Source of the DNA: a virus | Taxonomy: Duplodnaviria; Caudoviricetes | Reading direction: 5' to 3' (one strand) | Virus record (IMG/VR): IMGVR_UViG_3300031519_000199 | Coordinates: 1-25,369 of that record | DNA length: 25,369 nucleotides | Shown here: positions 4,901-25,369 of the stretch, piece by piece | Numbering within the stretch: the stretch's first letter is position 1 | How the letters are laid out: the number at the start of each line of letters is the position of its first letter | Made by a program: the position numbers and the translations under genes | Notes under the pieces: model-generated | Told to the model about the DNA's origin: nothing | The model's database searches: none | What the model saw: the letters and a program-made list of their open reading frames with translations, nothing else

Positions 4901-7851
4901 ACATTGGCAAAAATAACGAAGCCGGTACACTCAACAATATAGAAGTCTATGTAGACCCCAGACAAGTTACTCTAGAGGAAGCTAAAGACGCACTTAGAGT
5001 CCAAGGTATAAACAACCCCACTGACCAAGAAGCTGCTGCATACGTCGGTCAAGGGGACGGGAATTTCCAGAGTACTAAGAATACAGAAATACAAGCATAC
5101 GCTGACCCAAGAGTTATAGACGATGCGGAAGCTAGGGCCGCACTACAAGCGCAAGGTATAGCCAATCCAAAACAAGAAGAAATTGACCAATTTACAGGGC
5201 AAGGCGGTGTTAATTTTGAAACTAGCAACATAGGCAAAGCTACTGATTACGCTAACCCATTGTCCCTATCGACTGCAGAGATAGAAGCTGCCGCTGCAGA
5301 ACAAGGATACACCCTATCAACAGGTGAAGCAGAAGCCCTTTCTGGGCGAATATTGCCGGGGCAAACAGAAGCTGAAGCTATAGCCAGCCAAGGAAATGTG
5401 TTTAACGCTGGGGCTATTACAGAAGCAGAACTGCAAGCGATAGCAGACGAACAAGGGTATACCTTAACCGATACAGATCGAGCCTTAATTGGAAACAACT
5501 CTAACGCTGCCCAAGCACTGCTTAATGTAGAAAATCAATTTAATGAAAGCGCAATCACAAAAGCAGAAATAAACGCTGCTGCACGACGTGCTGGCATTGA
5601 CCCTAAAGATCTTACAGAGAGCGATTACGCGTTGGTTGGTAATATAGCGGAGAAAGACGCGGAGGGTAACTTTGTACCTGCGGGAGATATTTTAGCTGGA
5701 GAACAAGCACGTTTTGAAGGTAGGGTAGCAGATGCAACTGCAGCAGAACAAAAAGCCGCAGCAGAAACCGCTATTAAAGCAGCCGTTACAGCCGCTGGCG
5801 CTCCTGCCCTATCTGCTACTGATCTTGAACGCTATATCGGAATGGTTATCGGTGGCGGTCTTACTATCGCTGAAGCAGTAAAAACAGTAGAAAGGGATAT
5901 TGAAGTGAGTAACTACGATACAGATGCTTATCTTGCAGATGCAGATTACCCTGAGAACCCGAATACTGCCTCTGATGAAACCCCTGCCATGTCTGCGTTT
6001 GATGTCCAAGCAATGAATTGGTTGTTCGGTCGGTATGGGTTAGACACTAATGCTTGGCCTGAAGGTATAGAAATCCAAGGAGGGGATATAAACGGGGACG
6101 GTATTTATAGCGCAGATGAACTTAGAGCGATAGGGTTTACACCCGAAATAGGCGCAGATCCTAAATTCTTTGAAGATCCTGAAGGGTCAAATACTGACTC
6201 GGGCGACATATCACCAACAGGTACCGATAACCAAGGTAGTGGTAACTCTGGTATTAGAGACCAAGTAGTAGCGGCTGTAACGGCGGCTGGTGTAACTTTA
6301 GCTGCAGATAAAATTGACGAGATTATTGCGGATATTGTTTCTGGTGCCGCTACTGACATAGACAAAGCAGTCGCAGATAAAGTTACAGAGTACCAGCTTG
6401 GTAATGACACTGACTCTGGTACTGATAATGGGCTAGAAGACTCAACCATTGAGGGCGACCCAGATGATTACGTAAAAGTAAAAGACTTTAATCGTGAAGT
6501 AGGTGCCTTACAAGACAACGTAATAGAGTTAATAAACGAATTAGAAACAGCGGGGGCAACTCGGGATGAGGCTCTTGCTTTAGCTATCGGTGTACCTGCA
6601 GGACAATCGGGAGGCCCATCGGGGATATACGCAGAACTTGGTAATTTCGCTACTTCAGATCAAGCCGAGGCAATCAAAAAAGTAGTTGATGGTATTGCTA
6701 CAGAACTTGGTACAACTGCTGCTGATGTTGTGGCAATAAAAAGTAAACTGGACACTCTTGTAACCCAAGACGATATATCAGGTCTCGCCACTCAGGAAGA
6801 CGTAGTAAATGCGGAAGCGCGTTTAAACACCCGTATTGGTGAGCTTGTAACCGAAGGTAAAACTCGTCTTGACGCTCTAGACATCGCTTTAGGCGAATTG
6901 GCTATTGATTTAGGTACTACTAAAGAGGCTATTACTAAACAACTTACCGCGTTCCAAACAAATCTAGATGCAGACCTAGGAAAACTTGCAACTAAGCAAG
7001 ACGTTTTAGACACCGAAACTCGTATTCGGGATAAACAAGACGAATACCAGCGGCAAGGTATGAAGGCAGATGAAGCCTTAGAAGCTGCAATAAATGACGT
7101 TGCTACTGATTTAGGTACTACTAAAGAGGCTATTACTAAACAACTTACCGAGTTCCAAACAAATCTAGATGCAGATTTGGCTTTGCTTGCTACCAAGAAA
7201 CAAGTTAACGCGCTTGAAACTGAGCTGTACTTAAAGTTATCGGAGTACGAAGCACAAGGTAAAACTCGGGACGAAGCAACTCAGTTAGCTATTAAAGATT
7301 TGGCTACGGATCTAAAGACTACCGAAGCTAATTTGATGACTGAGTTGGGAGTAACTCAAGACACCTTAACCAACAAAATTACTGAAGTTGAGACCAACCT
7401 CACTAACCAGTTCAATAGTCAGATCGAGTCTACCAAAGAACTTATAACCGAAACTGCGACAGAGACTCAAAAACAGATACAAACTACGGCAAACCAGAGC
7501 GCAGCTAGAGACTTCTTTGATATGGTATTGGGTTCTGAGGATCTTGAAGGGCAGCAAGTTACGGTAAGCCAGTCTCCTTTGGCGCAGATCAATTACATAT
7601 ATGATTGGCAAGATCCCTTAGCTAACCAACAACAGCGCGGGTTCTTTGGTGCAGCAAGCCCTTACGGAGAGTCGTTAGCTGCAGGGAAAAGCAGACGACC
7701 CCAGACAATCGCTAATGTTATGCAGGGGCCACTGAACCTGCAAGGCGCACCGGTAGGGCCAATGGGAGGGCCATTAGGTATGGCCGCAGGTGGTAAAGTA
7801 GATTATGATTTCCTAAACGAAATCTCACAAATAATGAGTTTTGGAGAATAA
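1999..7851 (+). CDS. Giant acidic repeat-rich putative internal virion protein with EF-hand-like Ca2+-binding loops
   Basis: 1950-aa ORF with GAGG upstream. Four DxD/NxDG...E loops, ~50-aa tandem repeats, ~67-aa coiled-coil repeats, a Gly/Ala-rich hydrophobic middle segment and a C-terminal MAAGG motif. Confidence 0.7.
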   Translation: MAINIGKINVPPPNWKTYDTNGDGKLTDAELTMWNNVVQNYKTYIDPNFEDTYEAGTATGTGTGTSEGTGVDQLDVVDIIRNVGAQALGSVLLNELAAQGYSATDIDASFATMGSSTPDAYFPPRPDFAATLYPNGPTGEDGNWSSEQLTAIQEADLDFNLDRLLTVTQANRVAEETDTPYVHPYTEPALNYLLGSEGADSDGDGVLSTEELGEYLADSGTIMNIVGSESEAASAIDQNQDGVISEEEYRNAVAMGVVSETDEDPNPVQTAFLADMGFDASPSAAWMEAFTRKSAASFQTGAQQILTQSLQDAGLAVLGMLQNGLLEQLESGEDTLSRPIIDKDAPAYSIFGAGIDSYFERIFDGKDTISRDALLTNDEFYHVGIKLATRNSSTPMLSAEGITLTDTDQALVDRYVAVRDDYREEANDTYAGDASAVTADEVASKRTELLAGARSPIAKAWASKITDDQIRDRIATERKNAAILARANEKSIYSPELLQKRDELVAAGITNAAAILENVDPFSELRPLLYEAAINKIGDAADALVARRDDAGGYSDLDPKTKNMLNLASFGIRAVGSMSETFAGALALVGETSSDSVLGRFGTALVNLASSIETQDFKDAADEVEARIGRTTGFWGTAKAIFGSGDIPLEFLLRQVLPEVGEEILLSKITGGTTKGVKFNGANSEFKEFLTHPANRPDGAPTWLKDKLAILVGKDELGDMAELIAGTAGEAYDRAYFLARDSTNPATGDPYTEEEARDFAYGVMGRATTGAFIVNRFAAGVSIDDMVENFFPGADNKAIREVLTAIQNNPTVKTFLSLTGEGASEGGEGAIAAYSVASDLVVLDSTINVLGEAGAAGALGTALGSLVDISMTGGFAIDNAASNVAAAFNTDINDVLTTARTELDAGANLADVTANMEESFNGMGLADVPLQTDILNGVDDASYTTGLETEEKFDELGYTPTEKEINEYIGKNNEAGTLNNIEVYVDPRQVTLEEAKDALRVQGINNPTDQEAAAYVGQGDGNFQSTKNTEIQAYADPRVIDDAEARAALQAQGIANPKQEEIDQFTGQGGVNFETSNIGKATDYANPLSLSTAEIEAAAAEQGYTLSTGEAEALSGRILPGQTEAEAIASQGNVFNAGAITEAELQAIADEQGYTLTDTDRALIGNNSNAAQALLNVENQFNESAITKAEINAAARRAGIDPKDLTESDYALVGNIAEKDAEGNFVPAGDILAGEQARFEGRVADATAAEQKAAAETAIKAAVTAAGAPALSATDLERYIGMVIGGGLTIAEAVKTVERDIEVSNYDTDAYLADADYPENPNTASDETPAMSAFDVQAMNWLFGRYGLDTNAWPEGIEIQGGDINGDGIYSADELRAIGFTPEIGADPKFFEDPEGSNTDSGDISPTGTDNQGSGNSGIRDQVVAAVTAAGVTLAADKIDEIIADIVSGAATDIDKAVADKVTEYQLGNDTDSGTDNGLEDSTIEGDPDDYVKVKDFNREVGALQDNVIELINELETAGATRDEALALAIGVPAGQSGGPSGIYAELGNFATSDQAEAIKKVVDGIATELGTTAADVVAIKSKLDTLVTQDDISGLATQEDVVNAEARLNTRIGELVTEGKTRLDALDIALGELAIDLGTTKEAITKQLTAFQTNLDADLGKLATKQDVLDTETRIRDKQDEYQRQGMKADEALEAAINDVATDLGTTKEAITKQLTEFQTNLDADLALLATKKQVNALETELYLKLSEYEAQGKTRDEATQLAIKDLATDLKTTEANLMTELGVTQDTLTNKITEVETNLTNQFNSQIESTKELITETATETQKQIQTTANQSAARDFFDMVLGSEDLEGQQVTVSQSPLAQINYIYDWQDPLANQQQRGFFGAASPYGESLAAGKSRRPQTIANVMQGPLNLQGAPVGPMGGPLGMAAGGKVDYDFLNEISQIMSFGE
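6901..7175 (+). repeat. Near-identical 74-bp direct repeat (6901-6974 and 7102-7175), 201-bp period
   Basis: GCTA(T/C)TGATTTAGGTACTACTAAAGAGGCTATTACTAAACAACTTACCG(C/A)GTTCCAAACAAATCTAGATGCAGA occurs twice with 2 mismatches, in frame. Confidence 0.95.
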
Positions 7852-11723: not shown

Positions 11724-14700
11724 ATGGATGTAACCCTACCAAATGGCGTTGTTGTACGGGACGTTCCTGACGATATAACGCAAGCAGAACTAAAACGGCG
11801 TGCTATTGCAGGGGGTATTATAACGGAGGAAGATTTCCCACCCCCTGAACCCGACTTCCTAGACCAGATCGAAGAGTTTGGTAAGGGTATTCCTAGGGGG
11901 ATTATCGGGTTAGCTGAACAGGCTGCACTAGGTGGCGCTTCTATACTGACCGAAGAAGGCGAAGAAGGTGTTCGTGAGTCTATCCTCGATACTGCTGGTT
12001 CTGCCAGAGAGTATTTTGCACCTGACCGTGGCTCTGAAGATACCGTAGGTGGTAAGTTTGGTGAGGCACTTGGGTCGTTTGCGGGTCTTGGCCTTGCTTC
12101 TTTAGTTCCGGGTATTGGTATGCCCCTTGCTGGTGGGTTAGCTGTTGGCGCTGGTGCTGGTGAAGCTAGAGAACGTTCGCGTGCTGCTGGTGCTACCGAA
12201 GGCGAACGTGGCGTTGCTACTGCGTTAGGTGCCGTAATTGGTCTATCCGAACTAATACCACTCAGAGTATTAGGTTCTCTCCGTAAAGGCGTTGACGACA
12301 GTGTTGTTAAACAAATACTAGGTCGCGTCAAACGTGCCGGTATTGCAGGTGGTGCTGAAGGTGCACAGGAAGCAGCAGCAGGAGTAGCTCAAAACCTCGT
12401 CCAGAAAGGTGTTTACGATCCTGACCAAGGCGTATTTACAGGCAGTGGCGAAGCATTTGGCTATGGGGCAGGTGTTGGCGGCTTGGTTCAAGGGCTGCTT
12501 GATCTAGCACTACCTAAGTCAAGAGGTAGGGGCGACGTTGATCCAGACGAAGTAACCGAAGAGTCCATAGAAGAAACACTGCAGTTGGGGTATGACCCTT
12601 CAGCAGAAATAATCTTTGAAGATGGAAGTGTACTACGTGGCAATAGAGAGACAATAGAAGAGGCGGGGTACGACTTCGATGAGGCGCGGCAGAACACTGA
12701 GTTCCGCGCTCTAGCCAAAGCAAAAGAACAAGAAGCCATTGCTGCAGAAGAAGCGCGTACGGATGCTCTCCGTGAATCTTACGGCAGAGCAAATACTCTC
12801 CGTGTACCTGATGCCCTGATAGAAGATGCTAATACCGAAGCATCCGCTATATTTAAAAACCAAGCAATAAAATCACAAATAGCTAGGACTGAAGAAGATA
12901 ACCGTAACCTGTTAGGGTATGAACCAAGAGACTTCGTTACAGACGCTGAAGGTAACACTGTACCGTTAAAAGAAGTCCAAGATAACTACATAATAGATGA
13001 AGTAGACGCCGAAAAAGCTAGGCTAGAAGCAGAAATTGCACAAGCTGCGGCACTTGCTAATCGAGAAGCGCGACCGATTCTAGCCGACCAACCTGCCCCT
13101 CAAGTACTTCAGCAAAGACAGCTTGCTGATGAAGCACAAGCATTGGGAGCAGCGCAAGCAGAGTTAGCCGGTAGACCGCAAACAGATTTATTCCCGCAGG
13201 CACTCACTACAGCAGAGGCGCAAGAAGCCAGAAGACCTGCGCCAGCACCTGCGCCAGAACCTACACAAAAGATCAGCCAAAAGTTCTTGAAGAGTATCGG
13301 TATAACGAGGGCAAAACCGTTATACAGACGGTTGATGGATGATAAAGAAGTTCCTTTGTCGGAACTTAATGCCGAACTCAAAGCATACGTAGACAACCCA
13401 GACGTAAAAGATGCTCCCACCAAAGCTAAGATAAACGAGTTCTTGGGTGTGCCTCAGAACAAACAGATCGAGCTTGCCTTTGGGGAAACCGAAACGGCAG
13501 AGACAGTAAAAGAAGTTACTACCTCATCATCTACAACAGCAGAAAAATCTGTCACAGAAGAAGCGAAAGAAGATACTGGGACAACACCCAAGAAGTTCGA
13601 TATGAAAAGCCTTGAAGGGCTGTCTATCACAGAACAACTCAAGGTGCTTAGAGGTCGGGGTGCACCCACTACGTTTACTCCTGCGGCAGTTGTTGACGGG
13701 CAACTTAAACTTGAGGGGTCTATTTCTGAGACAGATCTTGAGCAACAAGGCGAACAAAGACGCTTCGTAAGCGAAGTCAGCAGGGATATGCAGCGCCAAG
13801 AACTGGATACTAAGCCGCTAACTATTGGCGAGCGTGCAGAAGCTGTAATGGAGTCGCCCCTCGGTATAGACCCTGCACTAGCTAATGTGCCCTCAGAGTT
13901 TCGTGAGAAAGTTACAACAGCAGTAACAACTGAGCGCGCCATTCGAGACGCTATGGCACAGAAGACCAAGGACGAAACTGCTGCAAAGACAAGGAAAGCC
14001 AACGCAGCAAAAGAGAAGGCAAGACAGGGCGATACTACCCGTGAAACAAAGGAACTAGCGGATGGCCCTAAAGGAAAACAAAAACGAAAAGGTGCGGGGC
14101 CTGTTGTTTCCTACGCAAAACAAATTATCGACCAAGCTGCAAAATACCAGCGCCAAGCCAACAAGGTTACTTTTGACACTGACGCTAGTAAGACTACCGA
14201 TATCAAACTAGGTAACGAAAAAGTCGGTACCGTTAAGAAAGTTGGTAAGCAGTGGCAAGTACGGGTCGGGGAAGAAACTAAATCTTTTACGAACAAAAGC
14301 CAGATTAGTAAGTATTTGAACAAAGAATCGAAGGCTATCAACACGAAACGCCTTGCGGTAATAACTTCTGCTACCAACCAAGCTGTAGCTGAGTTGGCCC
14401 CCATCCAGAAAATTAACGAGCAGTTAGAAGCGTACGCCCCTAGGTACAACATGGATATTGATACGCCCCTAGCGGATTCGGTTGTAGAGCAGTTAGAGGC
14501 GGGTAACTTAAAAGAGGCGTTAGAAGCGTTAAGTAAATCTGACCTTAGACCTAGAGTTAAAGACATCGCCAAGGTACTGATGGGTGTAATAGGGGACACT
14601 AAGGTAGTTGTTGTACCTAAAAATCCTACCAACGCTGCGGAAAGACGTTATAGAGAACTTTTAGATAGAAAATCTGGCACGCAAGGGCTTTATATTTGGC

Positions 14701-17700
14701 GTCCCGACACTACGGGTGTACCGACTCCCGGTATAAAGAGCAATGTTATCTTGCTAGATGGGGAGATCGGGCTAACATCCGCTACCCTATTACATGAGAT
14801 GACGCACGCTGCAACTTTTATTACGTTAAAGAATCCGTCTAACCCAACTACTAAACAACTCATTAATTTGTTTGAGTCTGTGAAGCCGTACCTATCAAGT
14901 TCTTATGGGGCTACGAATGTAGAAGAGTTTGTGGCAGAAGCCTTTGGTAACGATAACTTCGCTATGGAACTAGCTACTATTAACGTTCAGGGCGAGCCAG
15001 CTAGTGCTTGGCAGAAGTTTACTAACATCATAGGAAACCTTATCCGTAAGTTGAAAAGGTTAGATACTGTTAAATTAGAAATTGTTGAAGGTGCCGAAAC
15101 GGGTACTGCTCTATCTGAAGCAGACCGACTAATAAGGGATATATTAGCCCCCACAATAAACTCTAGGGGTGCTGGTTCGTTACTAGAAAACTCTTCGGCT
15201 TCTGGTGTAGAGGAAGTAATGCGTAAAGTAGGTAACGTGCAGAAAGACTTCACACCTATGGACAGTGCAGGTAGGCAGAAGTTTGTTGATGATTCTATGT
15301 CGTTCTTATCGACTGCCTCTAAGAAAGTACAACGTGCCTTCCTAGGGTTTATTCCTTCTCAGGGGTTGGCTGATATTGTTGGTGGGTACAATAAGAAGTT
15401 AGGCAAATTTGCTCTAGACTTACACGCTCTTATGGAAGAGCAACGAGGTAAGTTAAACGAGTACGATAACGCTGCTGATGGCACCATGAAGCAGATTGAC
15501 TCGTGGGTCTACGAAAACTGGTGGGCTAAGGCTCGCGGGAAAGTAAAGGATAGAGAGAAGTTAGATTTACTTAACGATATTATATCTACAAGCACCACAG
15601 AAGAAGTCGATCCGTCTAAGCCGCGAAGCACTTACGAGAACAACAAAAAGAAACTAGCGGTATGGAAAGAGCTGCAATCTAGTTGGAACAACTTAGGTGA
15701 AGGTGGTCAGAACGTCTACAAGGCAATGCGAGACTCTTACTCTGTTCGATACAAAGAGTTGGTAGCAGTCCTCAACGGTAGGATTGACGATCTAAATATC
15801 GACAAAGAGAACAAAGAAAAGCTTAGAACGACCGTCATGGAGAAGTTAGCCAAGCGAGGTAAGGTCGATCCTTACTTCCCCCTATCTCGTTTCGGTGATT
15901 ATAAATTGAGCTTCCAAGCTTTTAATGAAGTGACGCAGACTACTGAACCTGTGTTTATTATGTTTACTACAAAGAACGAACGAGATAGATACATCAAAGA
16001 ACGGCTCGGTGACTCTGACGTAGTGATCCAAGACAGTATCGAACTCTACGACGGCAACGATACCCCTGCATATAAGGAAACGGTTTCTGCTAGTTTTGTT
16101 AACGAAGTGCTAGAGATCCTTAGCACGAAAGGCGGTAAGGACGGTACGGGCGTAAGCGCGGAAGTAAAAAACGAAATCCTAAAAACGTTTATAGAGACGT
16201 TGCCTGAGACCTCCTTTGCAAAGAACTTCCAGCCCCGCGCAGGTACAGCAGGGTTTAAAAATGACCATATCGATGTCATGCGTTCTAAGATATACGATCT
16301 TAGCCGAACTATTGTCCGGTTGCAGTTCAAAAATAAAATAGATAAGCAGAAAGAAGCGATCCGTGGGAAGGTTCCCGGTAAAGAAGATTTAGAACTAGTG
16401 AGGATGAGTAGTCGGGATGGGATAGAAAAAGAACTACAGAACGAACTTCTTTTGCGTGCAGACTTTGCAAGAAATCCCCCTAGGGACGGTATCGCACAAG
16501 CTGCTAACCGAGCTGCCTTTATTTGGACAATCGGGTTCAACACTTCCTCTGCGCTGGTTAACTTGTCGCAGATCCCTTTGTTTGTGTTCCCAATGTTGAG
16601 TGGTAAGTACGGCATAGAGGAAGCGGGTTCAGCTATAGCTCACGCATCAGGACTCATTTCGGGCACGGTGCTCAACGAAAGTACTCGGGTTAGAAGAATA
16701 CGTGGGATCGTGCCTTTTGGTAAGCAAGATACCGTTGACGTATTCGCAATGCCCTCTATAGATAACTTGTTTGAGCTGGACGCAGGGGGTAATTATTCTG
16801 TACGCAAAGACCTTGGCCGTACCCCCAAACAAATAAAAGAACTTGAAGCCCTTATACCACTAGTACAACTAGCAGCAGCTAGGGGGCAGCTCAACCGTTC
16901 AATGTTTGCAGATAGCCTTGGGCTAGATTCGTCTGGTCGAGACAAGAGCGTAACCGACAAAGTTAGCTCTTGGTCTGCTTTCATGTTCCATCAGGTAGAA
17001 CAATATAACCGTCAGGTGACTTTGGTTACCACCTACAACTTAGAGCTTGCTAGACTCAATGATAAGAGCAAAGCCACTGCCGCTGAACAGAAACTATCTA
17101 CGCAGGGGAAAAGGGATCTTGCAGCAAAAAATGCGTTGTTTGAAACACAACAACTCAACGGCGGTGCAGTACTAGAGACAGCTCCGAGATGGGCACAAAA
17201 GGGCTTGGGTCGTGTGGCCCTGATGTACAAGCAGTACGGCATTCAGATGTACTACACCATGTTGAAGTCAGCTAAGACCATGCTAAGTAGAGAAGCTGAT
17301 CCAGAAGTTAGGAAAGCCGCGTTCAAACAACTTGTTGCGGTGCACGGTACGGCGCTTTTCTTTGCAGGGGTGCAGGGATTACCGCTTTTCGGTGCATTTA
17401 CCATGATCGCTAACTTGTTACAAGAGGATGACGAAGACACAGCAGAAACAATCGTACGTAAGTACATTGGCGATGGGTGGTATAAAGGTGGCCTAACAGA
17501 ACTGCTAGATGTCGATGTGTCTCAACGGGTAGCTCTGACTAACTTGTTATTCCAAGTAAACCGATTCAACCGAAATCCTTCCCCAGAAGAGACGCTATTC
17601 TACTACTTAGGTGGCCCTGCGTGGAGTGTCGGTAAATCTTTCTTGCGTGGTGGTGAAGAACTACTTAGAGGCGATATGCAACGTGGTATAGAGAGTATGG

Positions 17701-18176
17701 TGCCGGGAGCGGTACGTAATGGCTTAAAAGCAATACGCTACACCGAGGAAGGGGCACTTACTCGACGTAAAGATCCTATCCTAGACGATATTACCAACGG
17801 TCAGCTACTAGCGCAGGTAATAGGTTTTGCTCCCGCTGAATACTCTAGACGGCAAGAAGAGAACCAAGACTTCAAACGTATGGAGTCCACAAGCCGAAAG
17901 AAACGCGGTGACTTAATGAAAAAATACTACTTAGCGTTGCGTATGGGAGACTACGAAGAAGCTCGTGGTGTAAAGCAGGATATCCAAGACTTCAATCAAC
18001 GTATCAGGAAAACATTTCCAAAAGCAATTATTACGTCAGACTCTATCAAAAGATCTATGCGTTCGCACATGAACACTACGGCAACAACACATAACGGTAT
18101 CGCGGTGAGTCCCATGTTCCGTAGCGCACTGCAGCAACACGCAAGGACTAGAGAACCTATAATCTTGGACGACTAA
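11724..18176 (+). CDS. Large polyvalent internal virion protein with zincin-like metallopeptidase and PLxRFG domains
   Basis: 2150 aa with AAGGT SD. Gly/Ala-rich hydrophobic N-terminal domain, LLHEMTH at 14793-14807 with downstream EEFVAEAF, YFPLSRFGDY at 15873-15902, and a helical hydrophobic C-terminal region. Confidence 0.8.
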   Translation: MDVTLPNGVVVRDVPDDITQAELKRRAIAGGIITEEDFPPPEPDFLDQIEEFGKGIPRGIIGLAEQAALGGASILTEEGEEGVRESILDTAGSAREYFAPDRGSEDTVGGKFGEALGSFAGLGLASLVPGIGMPLAGGLAVGAGAGEARERSRAAGATEGERGVATALGAVIGLSELIPLRVLGSLRKGVDDSVVKQILGRVKRAGIAGGAEGAQEAAAGVAQNLVQKGVYDPDQGVFTGSGEAFGYGAGVGGLVQGLLDLALPKSRGRGDVDPDEVTEESIEETLQLGYDPSAEIIFEDGSVLRGNRETIEEAGYDFDEARQNTEFRALAKAKEQEAIAAEEARTDALRESYGRANTLRVPDALIEDANTEASAIFKNQAIKSQIARTEEDNRNLLGYEPRDFVTDAEGNTVPLKEVQDNYIIDEVDAEKARLEAEIAQAAALANREARPILADQPAPQVLQQRQLADEAQALGAAQAELAGRPQTDLFPQALTTAEAQEARRPAPAPAPEPTQKISQKFLKSIGITRAKPLYRRLMDDKEVPLSELNAELKAYVDNPDVKDAPTKAKINEFLGVPQNKQIELAFGETETAETVKEVTTSSSTTAEKSVTEEAKEDTGTTPKKFDMKSLEGLSITEQLKVLRGRGAPTTFTPAAVVDGQLKLEGSISETDLEQQGEQRRFVSEVSRDMQRQELDTKPLTIGERAEAVMESPLGIDPALANVPSEFREKVTTAVTTERAIRDAMAQKTKDETAAKTRKANAAKEKARQGDTTRETKELADGPKGKQKRKGAGPVVSYAKQIIDQAAKYQRQANKVTFDTDASKTTDIKLGNEKVGTVKKVGKQWQVRVGEETKSFTNKSQISKYLNKESKAINTKRLAVITSATNQAVAELAPIQKINEQLEAYAPRYNMDIDTPLADSVVEQLEAGNLKEALEALSKSDLRPRVKDIAKVLMGVIGDTKVVVVPKNPTNAAERRYRELLDRKSGTQGLYIWRPDTTGVPTPGIKSNVILLDGEIGLTSATLLHEMTHAATFITLKNPSNPTTKQLINLFESVKPYLSSSYGATNVEEFVAEAFGNDNFAMELATINVQGEPASAWQKFTNIIGNLIRKLKRLDTVKLEIVEGAETGTALSEADRLIRDILAPTINSRGAGSLLENSSASGVEEVMRKVGNVQKDFTPMDSAGRQKFVDDSMSFLSTASKKVQRAFLGFIPSQGLADIVGGYNKKLGKFALDLHALMEEQRGKLNEYDNAADGTMKQIDSWVYENWWAKARGKVKDREKLDLLNDIISTSTTEEVDPSKPRSTYENNKKKLAVWKELQSSWNNLGEGGQNVYKAMRDSYSVRYKELVAVLNGRIDDLNIDKENKEKLRTTVMEKLAKRGKVDPYFPLSRFGDYKLSFQAFNEVTQTTEPVFIMFTTKNERDRYIKERLGDSDVVIQDSIELYDGNDTPAYKETVSASFVNEVLEILSTKGGKDGTGVSAEVKNEILKTFIETLPETSFAKNFQPRAGTAGFKNDHIDVMRSKIYDLSRTIVRLQFKNKIDKQKEAIRGKVPGKEDLELVRMSSRDGIEKELQNELLLRADFARNPPRDGIAQAANRAAFIWTIGFNTSSALVNLSQIPLFVFPMLSGKYGIEEAGSAIAHASGLISGTVLNESTRVRRIRGIVPFGKQDTVDVFAMPSIDNLFELDAGGNYSVRKDLGRTPKQIKELEALIPLVQLAAARGQLNRSMFADSLGLDSSGRDKSVTDKVSSWSAFMFHQVEQYNRQVTLVTTYNLELARLNDKSKATAAEQKLSTQGKRDLAAKNALFETQQLNGGAVLETAPRWAQKGLGRVALMYKQYGIQMYYTMLKSAKTMLSREADPEVRKAAFKQLVAVHGTALFFAGVQGLPLFGAFTMIANLLQEDDEDTAETIVRKYIGDGWYKGGLTELLDVDVSQRVALTNLLFQVNRFNRNPSPEETLFYYLGGPAWSVGKSFLRGGEELLRGDMQRGIESMVPGAVRNGLKAIRYTEEGALTRRKDPILDDITNGQLLAQVIGFAPAEYSRRQEENQDFKRMESTSRKKRGDLMKKYYLALRMGDYEEARGVKQDIQDFNQRIRKTFPKAIITSDSIKRSMRSHMNTTATTHNGIAVSPMFRSALQQHARTREPIILDD

Positions 18177-18319
18177 TCGTCTATCAAGCGTTGTTCCTTG
18201 TCGAGTATTTGCAATGTGCTCAATACAATCTGATCGTCACCTGCGCCTAATACGTTAGTGTCACGCAGTTTAACCAGCGTAATCCACGCTTGTAGCAGTT
18301 CTATCTTTGTTGGGGTCAT
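18173..18319 (-). CDS. Small 48-aa hypothetical protein (not in the ORF track)
   Basis: Hand translation MTPTKIELLQAWITLVKLRDTNVLGAGDDQIVLSTLQILDKEQRLIDD*. AGGAG SD 7 nt upstream of the ATG. Its stop overlaps the stop of the convergent 2150-aa gene. Confidence 0.7.
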   Translation of the reverse strand: MTPTKIELLQAWITLVKLRDTNVLGAGDDQIVLSTLQILDKEQRLIDD

Positions 18320-18342
18320 AAGGTACTCCTAGGTTAGGAGTT

Positions 18343-18365
18343 AGAAACCCCCTCCGAAGAGGGGG
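18343..18365 (-). terminator. Intrinsic terminator
   Basis: Minus strand reads CCCCCUC-UUCG-GAGGGGG-UUUCU: a 7-bp GC stem with a C(UUCG)G tetraloop and a short U tract. Confidence 0.75.
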
Positions 18366-18424
18366 GACTGCGTTAGCAGGAGGGTGACAGAACGCTGTAT
18401 AGCGAGAAGGAGGACGTGCTGTCT
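18343..18424 (-). ncRNA. Candidate ~80-nt small RNA with anti-Shine-Dalgarno motifs
   Basis: Bounded by an extended -10 box and a terminator. 5' stem GACAG/CUGUC, inner hairpins CGCU/AGCG and CUGC/GCAG, and two CCUCCU motifs. Confidence 0.45.
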
Positions 18425-18429
18425 AGGTA

Positions 18430-18438
18430 AATATATCA
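18430..18438 (-). promoter_or_regulatory. Putative extended -10 promoter (TGnTATATT)
   Basis: Minus strand TGA-TATATT overlaps the stop codon of the 75-aa ORF. Purines at 18424/18423 are suitably placed for +1. The -35 region is weak (TTCGTG). Confidence 0.4.
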
Positions 18439-18663
18439 CAATATCCGCCACACACGAACCCCTATTTTACTGCCCTCAATTCTAACTCGGGTTTCAATAC
18501 TCCATTGTTTTTTCTTGGTTATCGCACGGGTTTGCCTAATAGCTGCGCCGGTATTGATGCACGGGACAAAGACCGACATACCTACATCGATCTCGTCCCA
18601 TATAACTACAATCCGTACCCCGTCAGGGGACAGATCATAAGTCCGTAATACTCCCTGCCTCAT
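18436..18663 (-). CDS. Small hypothetical protein, possibly DNA-binding
   Basis: 75 aa, overlapping the primase 3' end, with GAGGA upstream. Pattern W..I.VG.SVFVPC ... IGVRVWR; basic C-terminal half. Confidence 0.7.
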   Translation of the reverse strand: MRQGVLRTYDLSPDGVRIVVIWDEIDVGMSVFVPCINTGAAIRQTRAITKKKQWSIETRVRIEGSKIGVRVWRIL

Positions 18664-21466
18664 TATCTTCCTCAGAAAATTGGACTACGATTACATCCGT
18701 AGGTGGCATGTTTAGGTGAGTTCCCTTACTCAATCGGGTCTTCATCTTCTTAGCGCCTAGCTTCTCGATTAAGTCGAGTACAAACGCTCCGTAGTTTATT
18801 TGCTGATCCCCACACCATTTCCGAAGCGGCTTGGGTACTAGGTACAATTTCTTGATATCTGTCTCGTACCGTGCCACCAATTTGTTGCGAGGTATAGCTT
18901 CGGGCTGGATAATGCTGTCCATCGCAGTACCGTCTTGCCTACGTAAATCGCTGGTGCTTTTGATACGTAAGATGTTATCTATATGCTCATTAACGTATTC
19001 GTTTAGCGTCTGCTCAATAGACACCGCCATGTCTCGCGTACGTGCCTTGTTCTCCAGTAGCATTTTTACTGACCAACGATTCAGACTCGGAACATCGTAC
19101 CTAATCAACTCTAGTTTGTTAGCGATGATCGCAGCAACCAAAGTAAGTGTTACACCTACTGACCAGAATCGGTTTTCCGAGGATAGCTCGGCTTCTTTGT
19201 CCACCCGTAACTGCACTTCATTGATAAGCTTCTTCACAGAGTCAAGGTTGTTCATAACGTACTGTGCGAATATAGGCCCAGCATGTCCGTAACACTTACC
19301 AAGAGATCTACTGAAAGCATCAGTTTCTTCTTTACCCATCGATCCTGTAAACATCTTTTCTACACGGACTTCTAGTATGCGCTGTGCTTCGGCGTTGGGG
19401 TTTTCCTTAATCAACCGGATACGCTCAATCAAACTCGTGTTACCTGTGGTCACTGCCATGAGACTCCAAGGTTCTCCCCGCGCTCGTTCAGAGTTACTTC
19501 CGCTGACTAACCGCCCTCTCTGCTTACCAGTTGTAAATTGTAAGGCCAACGTACTAAGGCTCTGTCCTGACGCGTTGGTTAACTCATCCACCAACAAAGG
19601 TAAGTTATGTAGTAGCTCCGAACGGTTCATCTTAGTGTTATTGGTATCTTGTTCGTTCAAGATAATTTCTTCTGGGTCACCCCAAATAGATGCAGCCGCA
19701 CGCATAGCCGTAGTTTTACCTAGTCCTGACTCCTTGCTGTACAAGTGAATTGCCGAACATGCAATATCATCTACGAACTGCATAAGGATGGAACCGAACC
19801 CCATGCAGAGTACATATTGATGCAGCTCAAATCCCGGCCTGTTATAGAACTCTACTACTTCGCGCCACTCGTCTAACGAACCTTTAGGCTCGAACGCCGG
19901 AAACATCCCCATAGTAGCTTTAGAAGGTGGGTTGAATTCCACCCGATCCTTCAGGATCTTCTGGTTACCCAGAATGAATCCCGTTGCTTCGTCATCTATC
20001 CATCCAAATTGTCTGTAGGCTTTATCTGCCATTTCTTTCTCCTGTAGTTCATTTACCCATGCCGCAACATAGTCCATTAGTTTGTCCATCTTTATAAGGG
20101 CAACGCCTTGCATTGCCATGTTCTTTCTAAACTCTTCCTTAGAGGTAATCGCTGTGAGTGGTACCGTAAATTCCTTAACGCCGTCTCTAGGCAGATGCAA
20201 TCGCATCACGGCTGCTTCCCCTAGCTCAATATCAACAATACGCTTAACCACGTAAAGATCGTTACGATATAACAGTTGTTCATCCATATCTCCGTCGTCA
20301 TTTTTAATTCGCTTATACACTCCACCGTTCGCACCACGAATATATGGACTCGGGTACGTCGGTATAACGAAGGTACTTACTGGTTGATTGGGTAGCCCTA
20401 AAGCGGGAGCTTCGACGATATTGTCCTGCTCCGTTGCTTCTTTTACGCGCCTACCAAGGTGCAAAGGCGACCTCAATTTGCCCCGATTGGGACATGCCAA
20501 ACATGTTTCTGGGTTCTCTTCCTCGAAACGGACGCACGTATACCGCTTATCGGCGGTTAGATTATCCCACTTACTATCAGTCTCCTCGGCACTGTATCCG
20601 TCATATCCAGCAGATATCTTGTGGGCTTTCTCCCTAGTGCCATCACTGCACGCCTTCAAGACCGACAACATACCTCGCCACGTAGGTTCAGTAGCTTCGT
20701 TCTTATCGGTGAGCGCCCTGAGTATCTGTGCACAACCTTCCCCACGTCGGGTCTTGTCTAAGATATCTTTGAACTTGTATTCTTGGTTTGCCAAGGCAGC
20801 GTTCATCACTGCACTAGCCCCTTCGATTCTTTTCGAGGGAACTGGTATCAACTCACTTCCTAGTAACTCCGAGAAGGTATCAAAGTCTACTTTACGGGGA
20901 GTATGTTCCCCTATAAAAGTAACCTCAGATGGTACATCAGGTTTATAGTTGTGTGTTCGGGGTACTCGTAAAACACGAGCAGCGTCTGCTGTTACTGCGG
21001 GATCTGCTGGGAAGTTATTATCTGCACAAAGCTGTTTCAAACGAGCCGCTACGGGTAGCCAATCGCCCATAGGTACAGCTTCCGACAATACCCAGTAAAC
21101 ATGAACCCCACGACCAGAGTTTATAAGCGTCGGTCTTGGTAGTTTAAACTTCTTAGCGAAAGTAATGAGTGCCGCTACCGCATCCTCCTGAGATGCAAAT
21201 TCTTTGGACGGGCCGCAATCAAGGTCTAGGAAGAAGGACTTAAGGTGTTTTACGTTATCGACTTTACGCGACTTACCTTCGTTAAATGTAGCCAAAGCAA
21301 AATAAACATCGTAACCCTTATCATCTAGGTCAACGGCGGCATCAATTAAGTAATCTACGGAACCATAAAACTGTTGGCTTCTTTTATCTTTGGAACTGTT
21401 AGATGCAAAAATACAATATAGCCCACTGCTCGATAGAACCTCCTTTAAAAATGTTGTTGTATCCAT
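18635..21466 (-). CDS. DNA primase (AEP/RepB-like) fused to a DUF927-type P-loop helicase
   Basis: AEP motifs FFLDLD, INSGRGVHVYW and RVLRVPRTHNYK; Cys-rich middle domain; Walker A ESGLGKTT and Walker B LLVDE. Likely start is ATG 21466 (MDTTTFL) rather than GTG 21490, which sits inside a stem. Confidence 0.85.
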   Translation of the reverse strand: MDTTTFLKEVLSSSGLYCIFASNSSKDKRSQQFYGSVDYLIDAAVDLDDKGYDVYFALATFNEGKSRKVDNVKHLKSFFLDLDCGPSKEFASQEDAVAALITFAKKFKLPRPTLINSGRGVHVYWVLSEAVPMGDWLPVAARLKQLCADNNFPADPAVTADAARVLRVPRTHNYKPDVPSEVTFIGEHTPRKVDFDTFSELLGSELIPVPSKRIEGASAVMNAALANQEYKFKDILDKTRRGEGCAQILRALTDKNEATEPTWRGMLSVLKACSDGTREKAHKISAGYDGYSAEETDSKWDNLTADKRYTCVRFEEENPETCLACPNRGKLRSPLHLGRRVKEATEQDNIVEAPALGLPNQPVSTFVIPTYPSPYIRGANGGVYKRIKNDDGDMDEQLLYRNDLYVVKRIVDIELGEAAVMRLHLPRDGVKEFTVPLTAITSKEEFRKNMAMQGVALIKMDKLMDYVAAWVNELQEKEMADKAYRQFGWIDDEATGFILGNQKILKDRVEFNPPSKATMGMFPAFEPKGSLDEWREVVEFYNRPGFELHQYVLCMGFGSILMQFVDDIACSAIHLYSKESGLGKTTAMRAAASIWGDPEEIILNEQDTNNTKMNRSELLHNLPLLVDELTNASGQSLSTLALQFTTGKQRGRLVSGSNSERARGEPWSLMAVTTGNTSLIERIRLIKENPNAEAQRILEVRVEKMFTGSMGKEETDAFSRSLGKCYGHAGPIFAQYVMNNLDSVKKLINEVQLRVDKEAELSSENRFWSVGVTLTLVAAIIANKLELIRYDVPSLNRWSVKMLLENKARTRDMAVSIEQTLNEYVNEHIDNILRIKSTSDLRRQDGTAMDSIIQPEAIPRNKLVARYETDIKKLYLVPKPLRKWCGDQQINYGAFVLDLIEKLGAKKMKTRLSKGTHLNMPPTDVIVVQFSEEDNEAGSITDL

Positions 21467-21486
21467 AAGCGTAGATCCAAGCGACA

Positions 21487-21572
21487 CCACGGCAGGGGCA
21501 TGCTTACGCCCTCTTCGACTAGTCTAGCCGTGGGTATTGTTTTAGGGATGGGCTTCTTCTAGAAGATACCCA
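21487..21572 (-). promoter_or_regulatory. Structured intergenic leader of the primase gene
   Basis: Stem CCACGGC/GCCGTGG (21487-93/21527-33) encloses a GGGCG/UGCCC hairpin and the palindrome GACTAGTC. A second hairpin at 21549-21572 contains the 12-bp palindrome TCTTCTAGAAGA. Confidence 0.5.
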
Positions 21573-23227: not shown

Positions 23228-23631
23228 TTCGAGGGTCTCCTAACAGAAATAGTATAAGTAGAATCCGAGTTCAACCCTTTGGGCATCTTGTCGGGATTTT
23301 CTTCCAAGAACTGCTTTATATTCTTTTGGTTAAGACGTTTATCGAAGAACTCTGGGATCTCATTTTCGAGTACGAATTCGTACATAGATTCCCAATCGCT
23401 CGTCCAATACTTCTGTCTAACCGATCTATAGAACAACCCTTCGGAAGTTTTCACGCTGCTAACGTCGTGCTCTTTACAATGTTCGAGTAAGGCTTGCTTT
23501 ATCTTGTCCTGTCGGGCAACTAAAAGCTCTTCTTCCTTATCGAATTCCTTCTTAAGCTGTGAACGCTTATTAGATATCTTTAAGTAAACCTTGGTTAGTT
23601 TTTCTAAAGATACGGAACCTGCTCCACTCAT
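23224..23631 (-). CDS. Hypothetical coiled-coil phage protein
   Basis: AAGGAG SD 7 nt before ATG 23631 (135 aa). N-terminal coiled coil followed by SVKTSEG..Y..V...YWTSDWE; the architecture is loosely reminiscent of Mu Gam-like proteins (unverified). Confidence 0.65.
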   Translation of the reverse strand: MSGAGSVSLEKLTKVYLKISNKRSQLKKEFDKEEELLVARQDKIKQALLEHCKEHDVSSVKTSEGLFYRSVRQKYWTSDWESMYEFVLENEIPEFFDKRLNQKNIKQFLEENPDKMPKGLNSDSTYTISVRRPSK

Positions 23632-23660
23632 TTCGATCTCCTTCACTTATCGAACGATTG

Positions 23661-23689
23661 AATATAGTCTATTACGGTGTACTACGCAA
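23661..23689 (-). promoter_or_regulatory. Putative sigma70 promoter for the replication genes
   Basis: Minus strand TTGCGT-17 nt-TATATT, about 30 nt upstream of ATG 23631. Confidence 0.5.
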
Positions 23690-25217
23690 CAATTTCGTTG
23701 TATAAGTCTATCATTTTTGTATGTACGTTGATTCTGTTATCAAGCATTCTATATACGTGCTTTTCTATGGCCGATCCCTGCAACTGAACCACCGTACACT
23801 TGTGGTCTTGGCCCGACCTGTGTACCCGAGCATTAGCTTGGGCGTACGTTTCTAGTGAACTGGTTGGCCCCCACCATACCACCGTATTCGCAGCCGTGAG
23901 CGTTACCCCATGCGCTGCTGCTTGAGGCTGGATAACTAGCACCCTAGGGTTTTCGGTTGTCTGGAAACGTTTGAATATTTCTGTCCTTCTATGGGCGGGT
24001 ACATCACCCCGAATAACTTCTGTTGTAATGCCGTCCTCGGTTAGTTTATCAACCAGTAGGTCAATAACATGTTTGAAGGGTACGAATATTAAAACCTTCT
24101 TGCTGGACTCATCAATTACTTCACGCAGGACTTTATATCGGTGCTTGATATCAAACTCTAGCGCCTCTTTCTTATCGGTGTACACGGCCCCCGCAGAAAT
24201 CTGTAGTAGCTTATTCATGTTAACCGCTGCATTAGCGGCAGTAATCTGCTCCCCCGCTGCGTCCATCACCATTCGATCCTTTAACAACTTATAGTATTTA
24301 ATCTGTTGTCTGGTAAGTTCGACTTCGCGTTTTACATATACCATAGGGGGTAGGTCTAAACACTCGTCCTTGGTGAATCGAATTGCCGGTTGAAGCACCC
24401 GAAACACAGTATCAGTAGCCGTGTCCTTCGCTACCCACCTAAAGTTAGTGATCTTAGTCATCACTCTGTCGCGGAAAGAACCAAAGAATCTAGGTACCGA
24501 GGTCGGATTAACAAGTTTGGCTAACCCATACGCATCCAATGGGCTTTGTGCCGCAGGAGTACCCGTCATCATCCACAACCATTTCTCTGGTGTGAGTAGG
24601 GCGTTCAAAGTTTTCCATCGTTTAGTCTGCGGATTCTTGTAGTGAGTCGCCTCATCCACAATGATTAAGTCAAAGTTACCGTTCGCTATGGCATCGGCTA
24701 CGATCTCTACCCCGTCGTAATTTATTATCACGTAGTCTGCACCGTTGTTAATAATGGCTCGTCGTTTTGCTGCTGGCCCATAAGCCACATCCACTGTACG
24801 GTGCATCGCAAACGTGAATAAGTCATTACGCCATGCGGAATCCATAATAGATAAGGGGCATATCACTAAGACACGCCGGACTTTACCCACGTCCATCAGG
24901 AAATCTGAGGCCCATATCGCGCTGGCTGTCTTACCAGTACCCTGCTCGTTGAAACAGAACGACCGTTTGTTCATGGTCATAAAGGCAGCGGTTGTTTTCT
25001 GGTGCTCGAACGGCGTGTGTTTGCCTGTCCACTTGTACTTCCCTTCAATAGGGGAAGGCACTTTGATGTTTAAGTTCTTTAAAACTTGAGCTTCATCTAT
25101 CCCCCACTTCACCACGACTTCGTTATCAGGTAGTTGCTTACTGTTAGGTATAACCATTGTTACTTTTTGGGGGTTGCGAAGCCGCAAGAGCAACGCCTTG
25201 TTATCTAAAATTTTCAT
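23682..25217 (-). CDS. SNF2-family (superfamily 2) helicase
   Basis: Motifs EQGTGKT (I), VICPLS (Ia), IVDEAT (II), MTGTP (III), HGVTL (V) and QANARVHRSGQ (VI). AGGA SD. Confidence 0.93.
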   Translation of the reverse strand: MKILDNKALLLRLRNPQKVTMVIPNSKQLPDNEVVVKWGIDEAQVLKNLNIKVPSPIEGKYKWTGKHTPFEHQKTTAAFMTMNKRSFCFNEQGTGKTASAIWASDFLMDVGKVRRVLVICPLSIMDSAWRNDLFTFAMHRTVDVAYGPAAKRRAIINNGADYVIINYDGVEIVADAIANGNFDLIIVDEATHYKNPQTKRWKTLNALLTPEKWLWMMTGTPAAQSPLDAYGLAKLVNPTSVPRFFGSFRDRVMTKITNFRWVAKDTATDTVFRVLQPAIRFTKDECLDLPPMVYVKREVELTRQQIKYYKLLKDRMVMDAAGEQITAANAAVNMNKLLQISAGAVYTDKKEALEFDIKHRYKVLREVIDESSKKVLIFVPFKHVIDLLVDKLTEDGITTEVIRGDVPAHRRTEIFKRFQTTENPRVLVIQPQAAAHGVTLTAANTVVWWGPTSSLETYAQANARVHRSGQDHKCTVVQLQGSAIEKHVYRMLDNRINVHTKMIDLYNEIVA

Positions 25218-25230
25218 ATATTTTCCTGCT

Positions 25231-25369
25231 AGAAAAGCCCTGCTTCGTCCACAGATAGGGCTAAGTCTGCGGTATCGGTATAAATTACCTACGGACTAAC
25301 CTGATTTTTGTACCCTGTAACCGGAAGATACAGGGTACGTTTTTTAAAGACGCATCAGGCTAAACGTCT
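25231..25369 (-). ncRNA. Candidate structured RNA (tandem pseudoknots) 5' of the helicase; may extend past the window edge
   Basis: At least five helices in ~135 nt, including a perfect 10-bp stem (25310-19/25329-38) and two H-type pseudoknot pairings. Confidence 0.55.

Follow-up and report, generated by a model that had tools for sequence, protein, structure and literature searches.

A conserved predicted small RNA at the end of a phage replication operon, complementary to translation start regions among the phage's own early genes

The stretch of DNA analysed here, referred to as the window, is a fragment of 25,369 nucleotides (nt), or 25.4 kb, from an uncultured phage (IMG/VR record IMGVR_UViG_3300031519_000199, 41% complete). 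Its virion and ejection genes, two giant open reading frames (ORFs) included, are carried on the plus strand, and its replication module, which comprises an SNF2 helicase, a Gp2.5-like single-stranded DNA-binding protein (SSB) and a DUF927 primase/helicase, lies on the minus strand. The primase gene is followed by an ORF of 75 amino acids (aa), and the 3' end of this ORF is adjoined, on the same strand, by the RNA element that is the subject of this work. The locus is composed of the following features, the helices being those given by RNAfold:

18635-21490, minus strand: DUF927 primase/helicase gene
18436-18663, minus strand: 75-aa ORF, from the ORF list; it overlaps the end of the primase gene and holds the predicted promoter of the RNA at its 3' end
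18430-18440, minus strand: predicted extended -10 element of the TTGTGATATATT type (TRTGnTAnnnT), the TG of the stop codon TGA being the extended -10 TG
18423, minus strand: predicted transcription start, the G of GACAG, 7 nt past the last T of the -10 hexamer
18386-18423, minus strand: hairpin 1, in which GACAG (18423-18419) pairs with CUGUC (18390-18386), with inner pairs ACGU/GCGU
18408-18413, minus strand: first CCUCCU, looped out by hairpin 1; the loop seed is GUCCUCCUUCUC
18378-18383, minus strand: second CCUCCU, in the linker after hairpin 1, aligning with the family-wide GUUCUCC / CUCC core
18368-18379, minus strand: small hairpin CUGC-UAAC-GCAG
18343-18365, minus strand: intrinsic terminator, CCCCCUC-UUCG-GAGGGGG with a UUUCU tail to 18343

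A first-pass annotation of this DNA had proposed a candidate anti-Shine-Dalgarno (anti-SD) small RNA (sRNA) of about 80 nt at this place, and the features from which it argued are all present. TGA (18438-18436), the stop codon of the 75-aa ORF, runs into TATATT (18435-18430); the GACAG/CUGUC hairpin with the first CCUCCU in its loop is reproduced by RNAfold, which leaves the second CCUCCU (18383-18378), after the stem, single-stranded; and the C(UUCG)G terminator is found at 18365-18348. Six bases separate TATATT from GACAG, which starts at 18423, and the final two bases of the second CCUCCU open the small hairpin in the RNAfold structure, in place of which the relatives of the window's subgroup have GCUC-NNN-GAGC. 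The RNA is predicted to measure 81 nt, from 18423 to 18343 on the minus strand. Its fold energy is -29.5 kcal/mol (z = -3.23), and none of 200 shuffled sequences folds as well. As in independently transcribed, terminator-ended trans-acting sRNAs, the 3' end is an intrinsic terminator, with a GC-rich stem, a UUCG loop and a U-rich tail; a simple terminator scan did not list it because the tail has only 4 T in 8 positions. The word CCTCCT is not above chance in the window (10 found, 11.2 expected, both strands), so the case rests on conservation in relatives.

A search with the primase protein gave 11 IMG/VR loci at 41-100% identity, and the module was found after the small 75-aa ORF in relatives with a primase 41-74% identical to that of the window. 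The small ORF is itself conserved at the protein level in 563 of 599 candidate IMG/VR stretches, with ~760 estimated in the collection. The sequence 3' of it was taken from 239 loci, which gave 157 distinct sequences. The usual order in the relatives is the stop codon plus TA, 10 more bases, a hairpin, a CU-rich stretch and an intrinsic terminator, with TGATA at the small-ORF stop in 115 and a terminator-like hairpin in 142 of the 157 distinct loci. The first hairpin mostly has the arms GACAG...CUGUC, its loop measuring from 7 nt to about 66 nt, and the commonest form of the CU-rich stretch is GUUCUCC. The family-wide invariant is a CUCC core: in A4, a MAFFT alignment of 41 representatives, each of its columns is either invariant or conserved to at least 90%. 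The conservation on which the first-pass annotation made its proposal depend is borne out for the promoter motif, the CU-rich motifs and the stems, and holds for CCUCCU itself only within the window's subgroup.

The 41-representative alignment was used to build a covariance model, R1, and 41 of the loci matched by the model are these seeds. At E <= 0.01 the model matches 60/80 and 46/77 distinct loci, that is 106 of 157, and all but one of its matches begin at the stop codon of the small ORF. The window holds exactly one match, at 18340-18438 on the minus strand, with 56 bits as a seed member. Among 14 whole or partial phage records, 12 have one match at the expected place (E <= 1), G005 and G009 being missed. 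An apparent second copy in G012 (L296, 33.6 bits) was rejected, as it consists only of a TGATA inside a gene and an ordinary terminator. The 75-aa ORF adjoins the module in nearly all loci examined; the exception is L068, where the module (1940-2019) lies ~500 nt past the small ORF, and the synteny is thus not absolute. Among GenBank phages, neither the DNA of the region nor, by tblastn, the 75-aa ORF has a match. Judged by their primases, the cultured phages that come nearest are Pseudomonas phage Rollin and Rhizobium phage RHph_TM3_14A (25-29% identity); in both, the primase is followed by different genes and the module is missing. In G005 the small ORF is followed only by a CU-rich terminator arm, without hairpin 1 and TGATA. 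In the same record (L271-L273), four early genes among the minus-strand genes at ~17.9-22.8 kb share an upstream sequence of ~20 nt, CCCTACCAACTCGGAG[A/C]AATAAC, before the ATG, and this repeat may be a phage promoter or operator.

The motif TRTGnTAnnnT, which we take to be an extended -10 element with a TRTG motif, was described by a position matrix of 56 cluster representatives, all chosen for TGATA. The leading T has a frequency of.88 and the R of.99; after the selected TGATA come three unspecified positions and a T (.82) at the sixth position of the hexamer. Six unconstrained bases then precede G (.77) A C A G, and the last sense codon of the ORF has G or A as its third base in 99% of the representatives. 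The -10 hexamer agrees with TATAAT at a mean of 3.9/6 positions, and TTCGCA (4/6 to TTGACA) lies 17 bp upstream in 22/56. Groups with another stop codon have other -10-like hexamers at the same place, such as TGATATAAT and GATAAT. The first G of hairpin 1 falls at the expected start distance from the -10 motif, and we propose that TRTGnTAnnnT is a host-type extended -10 promoter that would start the RNA at G18423. As to the earlier claim of an ~80-nt sRNA, its promoter-like motif, helices and terminator are conserved and its predicted length is close to the claimed one; its transcription is a prediction from these motifs. Two other readings of the element were rejected: a selenocysteine insertion (SECIS) or read-through signal formed by the UGA and the hairpin, because many relatives have tandem UGA-UAA or UGA-UAG, and an antiterminator in which the CU motif would pair with the terminator's 3' arm, because in the AT-rich subgroup these two stretches are not complementary.

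The support for the helices comes from pairing counts on alignment A4, which was not fitted to any structure. Taken together, the two helices show pairing in 87.2% of cells; sliding the 3' partners by 1-3 columns lowers this to 46.5-58.1%. The covariation score is 0.348, against 0.08-0.17 for the slid partners; none of 500 shuffles reaches the observed values. Covariation, which the first-pass annotation had named as a check, is, like the pairing, above both kinds of control. Helix 1 is paired in 85.6% of cells, with double changes in some sequences at 4 of its 5 pairs, and the terminator helix in 88.3%, with changes on both sides at 6 of 7 pairs. A few groups have wholly different stems (UGCAG/CUGCA, GUAGC/GCUAC, GGCAGGG/CCCUGCC). 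The G-U pairs found in both helices fit an RNA on the minus strand. A search for 5-bp stems with G-U allowed gave 48/56 at the true offset and 27-41/56 at others, a high background, and was not used as evidence.

These data bear on the proposal that the element acts as DNA, as a signal placed where the replication module meets the virion module (an origin, a priming site or an inverted repeat bound by a protein). Such a role would suit a position next to the primase/helicase gene and the GACAG/CTGTC arms, which are conserved more by sequence than by covariation. We nevertheless consider it extremely improbable: an arm spacing that varies from 7 nt to about 66 nt is unsuited to a dimeric DNA-binding site, read on the other strand, the G-U pairs that both helices contain would become A-C mismatches, the T-tail as well as the -10-like motif are specific to one strand, and the complementarity to start regions described next belongs to transcripts.

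The start regions of genes, from -25 to +3, were compared with the body of the cognate RNA in 10 phage records, and perfect complements of at least 7 nt were counted. Such complements are found at 93/271 genes on the same strand as the RNA, which are those of the replication module, and at 51/381 genes on the other strand (pooled Fisher p = 2.4e-10), distributed as follows:

G000 (the window): same strand 3/8, other strand 0/8
G001: same strand 6/19, other strand 7/45
G002: same strand 12/31, other strand 9/38
G003: same strand 3/25, other strand 3/43
G004: same strand 11/28, other strand 4/48
G006: same strand 10/31, other strand 7/37
G007: same strand 6/28, other strand 5/40
G008: same strand 12/27, other strand 2/35
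G009: same strand 15/35, other strand 5/42
G010: same strand 15/39, other strand 9/45

The same-strand count is reached by none of 300 shuffled RNA bodies in G002, G004, G008, G009 and G010, by 2/300 in G001 and G006, and by 6/300 in the window. The match is moreover specific to the cognate RNA: when the RNAs are swapped between phages, the diagonal sum of 3.39 compares with a permutation mean of 1.64 (standard deviation 0.32), and 1 of 100,000 permutations reaches 3.39. In 5 of the 10 records the commonest 8-mer of the same-strand start regions, found without reference to the RNA, is complementary to the RNA. The longest example is that of G008, where UGGAGAAACGACAUG is matched over 15 nt including the start codon (AUG) and the helicase over 14 nt. 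Matches of 12 nt are found in G009 (GAAGGAGCAAAC against GUUUGCUCCUUC of the RNA, with 15 genes), in G010 (GAAGGAGCUAAC) and in G004 (AGGAGAACAACA), and one of 10 nt at the helicase of G002 (UAGGAGAACG). The RNAs and start regions of G008 (15 nt), G009 (GUUUGCUCCUUC) and G010 (GUUAGCUCCUUC) would constitute natural orthogonal pairs. The predicted targets that recur are genes of the replication class, namely the SNF2 helicase, a 363-364-aa ATPase (phrog_1297), the HNH endonuclease and the SSB. A test based on energy is weaker, but agrees when pooled (medians -12.4 vs -10.7 kcal/mol, p = 7.6e-6). Duplex folding of the whole RNA against start regions was abandoned, as it gave implausible long-range structures, and contiguous matches were used instead.

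A seed complementary to several initiation regions and co-varying with them in relatives, as in terminator-ended trans-acting sRNAs, is thus found in this family, the matches of the window itself being of 7-8 nt. The earlier suggestion that the RNA pairs with ribosome-binding sites of phage mRNAs agrees with this cognate-specific complementarity to same-strand start regions, which would allow such pairing. The description of the element as an anti-SD RNA is accurate in part: the SD core is matched, but the complement runs past it into phage-specific bases of the spacer. The RNA is for that reason better described as aimed at whole early start regions than as a generic copy of the 16S anti-SD sequence.

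The window was also considered within its own subgroup, in a set formed by four further records with a CCUCCU-type RNA (G011, G012, G014 and G015), the window and G001. Complements are found at 10/29 same-strand and 1/35 other-strand genes in G011, a complete record in which 0/300 shuffles reach the count, at 7/28 and 0/7 in G012, at 1/7 and 0/5 in G014, and at 2/7 and 1/6 in G015, where one match extends over 13 nt; the pooled values are 29/98 and 9/106 (p = 9e-5). In these relatives the loop is matched over 8-13 nt at the start regions of the ATPase and other same-strand genes, the loop motif GUCCUCCUUC finding GAAGGAGGAC at the ATPase gene and AGGAGGACGA at a gene of 295-298 aa. The corresponding features of the window are the following:

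23682-25217, minus strand: SNF2 helicase gene
25224-25231, minus strand: predicted target site in the start region of the SNF2 helicase (ATG at 25217), UAGCAGGA, an 8-nt perfect complement to RNA positions 43-50
23638-23644, minus strand: predicted target site in the start region of a 135-aa gene (ATG at 23631), GAAGGAG, a 7-nt complement to the loop seed

The helicase site UAGCAGGA (25231-25224) is complementary to UCCUGCUA of the RNA (18381-18374), in the region of the second CCUCCU, and in G012 the site GAGCAGGA pairs with UCCUGCUC, both sides being changed with respect to the window; pairing of this site with the RNA in vivo would be expected. The site of the 135-aa gene is weak on its own, since it is mostly SD core. 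As 15-mers with up to 3 mismatches, the two seeds find only the RNA element itself in the window, and no extended targets. At 25232-25262 on the minus strand, the hairpin AGCCCU...AGGGCU and a UUUCU behind it immediately precede the ribosome-binding site of the helicase to which the RNA is complementary; this hairpin may be a terminator or attenuator before the helicase gene.

From what is directly observed, namely the sequence features, their conservation in a large family of uncultured marine phages, the pairing of the helices, the promoter-like motif and the cognate-specific complementarity of CU-rich parts that are unpaired or only weakly paired to start regions of same-strand genes, we propose with moderate confidence that the conserved module encodes a predicted sRNA of 81 nt which would probably pair at the ribosome-binding regions of early genes, those of the phage's own replication module, and block their translation. 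Such an RNA would have a host-type promoter of its own where the replication operon ends, or would be set free from the 3' end of that operon, and it would accumulate as a separate molecule bounded by the UUCG terminator. The loop seed GUCCUCCUUCUC and the linker seed CCCUCCUGCUA would then pair over the SD, the spacer and the start codon of early mRNAs, among them those of the SNF2 helicase, the ATPase, the HNH endonuclease and the SSB. Since the pairing covers the SD and often the start codon, translational repression is the expected effect, and expression would be shifted from early to late genes, as in an RNA counterpart of T4 RegA. In T4, the RegA protein attaches to initiation regions of numerous early mRNAs and stops their translation in the course of infection. 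The analogy is functional only and implies no homology, RegA being a protein that reads RNA directly, whereas here an RNA is predicted to act by base pairing.

Several observations weigh against this proposal. The window itself matches only 3/8 same-strand starts, with 8 nt at the helicase and 7 nt at the 135-aa gene, and the third match belongs to a spurious 60-aa ORF inside a giant gene; the fragment is without the part of the genome that holds the ATPase gene, and its own evidence is consequently limited to the helicase and the 135-aa gene. Gene starts were obtained with a crude caller based on ORF and SD, which favours SD-like upstream sequence. Shuffled RNAs match the count of G003 (3/25) in 74/300 cases and that of G007 in 10/300, and the energy test is null in the window (p = 0.36) and weak in G001 (0.13), G004 (0.26) and G007 (0.52). 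Some bases of the linker seed are shared with the small hairpin or with the 3' arm of hairpin 1 and would have to be opened locally for pairing, and helix 1 is mostly conserved in sequence, which makes its covariation modest. The -35 of the window, TTCGTG, agrees with the consensus at 2/6 positions, and the -10 hexamer of a large AT-rich subgroup, TAAATG, has no final T. The transcript and its 5' end are predicted from sequence, the 20 public runs that contain the phage being all of DNA and no RNA run appearing among the 24 listed, and it is the position of the pairing from which a repressive direction of the effect is deduced.

The element might alternatively be just the 3' untranslated region (3' UTR) of the replication operon, with a stabilising hairpin and a terminator before the convergent virion genes and a CU-rich stretch that has no partner in trans. 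The module does invariably close the block of same-strand genes, opposite the end of the convergent giant gene, and a terminator-like hairpin is present in 142 of the 157 distinct loci; loci of the L084/L175 type and G005 keep only the CU-rich stretch and the terminator, without hairpin 1 or TGATA. A plain terminator, however, leaves unexplained the near-invariant CUCC core, the TRTGnTAnnnT motif at a fixed 6-nt distance from the hairpin, and the phage-specific complementarity of 12-15 nt that is lost when RNAs are swapped, and we regard this alternative as unlikely. A 3' UTR with the same seeds could act by pairing in cis or after processing, in which form it overlaps the proposal of an sRNA directed at early genes.

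With regard to known RNA families, the Rfam scan suggested by the first-pass annotation gave no family at threshold, with Rfam 15, in the window or in 20 relatives, and the nearest rows below threshold are those of anti-SD sRNAs (ar14, mmgR). The ar14 family (RF02344) gave no row in the whole window at E <= 1 or in 18320-18470 at E <= 10; in the relative L236 it scores 29 bits, below its gathering score of 58.8, the model aligning with CCUCCC in the hairpin loop and UCCUCCC in the terminator loop. Also below the cut-off are RF00519 suhB/mmgR in L113 (28.1 bits vs 41), and RF02278 Betaproteobacteria toxic sRNA (26.6 vs 50) and RF02701 PsrR1 (23.6 vs 42) in L101; these three families have no rows in the window. 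The AbcR1/2 RNAs offer a comparison related to that with ar14/NfeR1. According to excerpts of PMC10746234, ar14/NfeR1 of Sinorhizobium meliloti acts in trans and silences mRNAs by way of their start regions, its anti-SD motifs lying where the RNA is unpaired, and it has three hairpins, each with an identical CCUCCUCCC motif unpaired. The window has no CCUCCUCCC motif, and instead carries CCUCCU twice, in a loop and again in a linker. In L216, L224 and L236 (about 808-890) the terminator loop holds a third anti-SD-like motif (AUCCUCCC or ACCCUCCC), and the three CU motifs (loop, linker and terminator loop) then have the layout of ar14/NfeR1. The likeness, which comprises the terminator at the end, the CU-rich anti-SD motifs in loops and linkers and the several initiation regions as targets (PMC10746234, excerpts), is one of design and not of membership. 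The phage element differs by its fixed synteny after the primase gene and the 75-aa ORF, and by its predicted targets, which are phage early genes and not host transporter or ntrB mRNAs.

It could be argued from this likeness that the RNA is an anti-SD sRNA aimed mainly at host mRNAs, as the alpha-proteobacterial NfeR1/AbcR RNAs are, for takeover of the host, and that its fit to phage genes is a side effect of the shared SD. CCUCC-type motifs in the loop and the linker resemble those of ar14/NfeR1 (PMC10746234, excerpts), the sub-threshold rows in relatives are those of ar14, mmgR, the Betaproteobacteria toxic sRNA and PsrR1, and phage sRNAs that act on host genes are known, such as PreS of lambda, which acts on dnaN and alaS and activates dnaN (bioRxiv 10.1101/2024.10.31.621285, excerpts). 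This alternative does not predict that the complement should continue beyond the SD core into spacer bases which vary between phages in step with the RNA, nor that same-strand phage genes should be preferred over those of the opposite strand, and it appears decidedly unlikely to us; host mRNAs may be additional partners. PreS and other Hfq-dependent phage sRNAs share with the predicted RNA that they are phage-encoded and act by base pairing, and PreS has no sequence or structural likeness to the element of the window. The closest phage example of an RNA that masks a ribosome-binding site is the c4 antisense RNA of phages P1 and P7, of ~77 nt, whose loops pair around the ribosome-binding site of a phage mRNA and block translation (PMC12197685, excerpts); it is likewise a phage-encoded RNA of similar size that pairs at a ribosome-binding site. 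The c4 RNA acts on one operon (ant/icd) in the immunity of a temperate phage (PMC12197685, excerpts), whereas here a whole group of early genes carries matching sequence and the phage family looks lytic. The C4 family of Rfam has no row in the window at E <= 1.

The genes that surround the element complete the description of the locus. Beyond the terminator lies one further small ORF:

18173-18319, minus strand: 48-aa ORF, after the terminator; its protein is conserved, in the window's subgroup only, and is not part of the family-wide module

Control of this adjacent ORF, one of the roles first suggested for the RNA, cannot be the main one, as the ORF is restricted to the subgroup and the RNA module is family-wide. 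As a regulator in cis, the element would compete for or mask the AGGAG of the ORF with its CUCCU motifs, and read-through of the terminator would set expression. A third CUCCU does pair with this SD, in the window and its subgroup: directly after the terminator, AGGAG is locked in the hairpin ACUCCUA-ACC-UAGGAGU (18341-18325). This local hairpin needs none of the upstream motifs, and most of the family is without the ORF yet keeps the hairpin, the CU-rich core and the terminator, the module being there followed directly by the end of the convergent gene; regulation in cis is accordingly very improbable as an explanation of the module. The 48-aa ORF thereby lies downstream of a strong terminator.

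The protein of the 75-aa ORF has no Pfam or PHROG match. Its AlphaFold2 (AF2) model (predicted local distance difference test, pLDDT, 90) shows a beta-alpha-beta-beta core, for which Foldseek gave no match at E <= 0.001. The top weak Foldseek rows (E 0.3-1) are small nucleic-acid-binding folds, R3H/KhpB, KH and Alba-like, and a wide structural comparison gave a best Z of 5.3 (root-mean-square deviation 3.5, 66 aligned), from which no fold was assigned. It can be hypothesised that this protein could be a partner of the RNA. On the plus strand, the giant ORF at 1999-7851 encodes 1950 aa with EF-hand motifs near residues 200-254, and that at 11724-18176 encodes 2150 aa, contains an LPD39 domain and resembles DarB-type antirestriction proteins (phrog_10089) in its C-terminal part; both products are likely virion-borne, injected proteins. 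The phage of the window is widespread, its sequence being present nearly whole (share 0.52-0.97) in 20 DNA runs of 13 studies, from marine, seawater and brine metagenomes.

sRNAs that mask ribosome-binding sites are well known in bacteria, and the few examples from phages have a single gene or host genes as their targets. The kind of RNA proposed here is therefore a known one, and what would be new is its match to a whole class of the phage's own start regions. In the open-access literature searched there is no description of this RNA family and no report of a lytic-type phage family with one sRNA matched to a whole class of its own start regions; excerpts of a 2025 review (PMC12197685) make no mention of 'early genes' or 'own genes'. 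Uncultured phage contigs also appear to contain recognisable regulatory RNA families outside Rfam 15. If the proposal is true, this one would time phage gene expression simply and by RNA alone, and would offer a natural case in which a regulon and its regulator co-vary across many genomes, as well as a ready set of orthogonal pairs of RNA and start region for tests and for synthetic control of translation. More tentatively, and with some doubt on our part, it can be hypothesised that this marine phage family, which counts hundreds of IMG/VR contigs, makes its switch from early to late expression by means of RNA, the early genes carrying a phage-specific extended SD 'address' and one sRNA at the end of the early operon silencing the whole set. 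Were this the case, the family would possess an RNA-based and evolvable counterpart of T4 RegA, in which the RNA and its regulon co-evolve.

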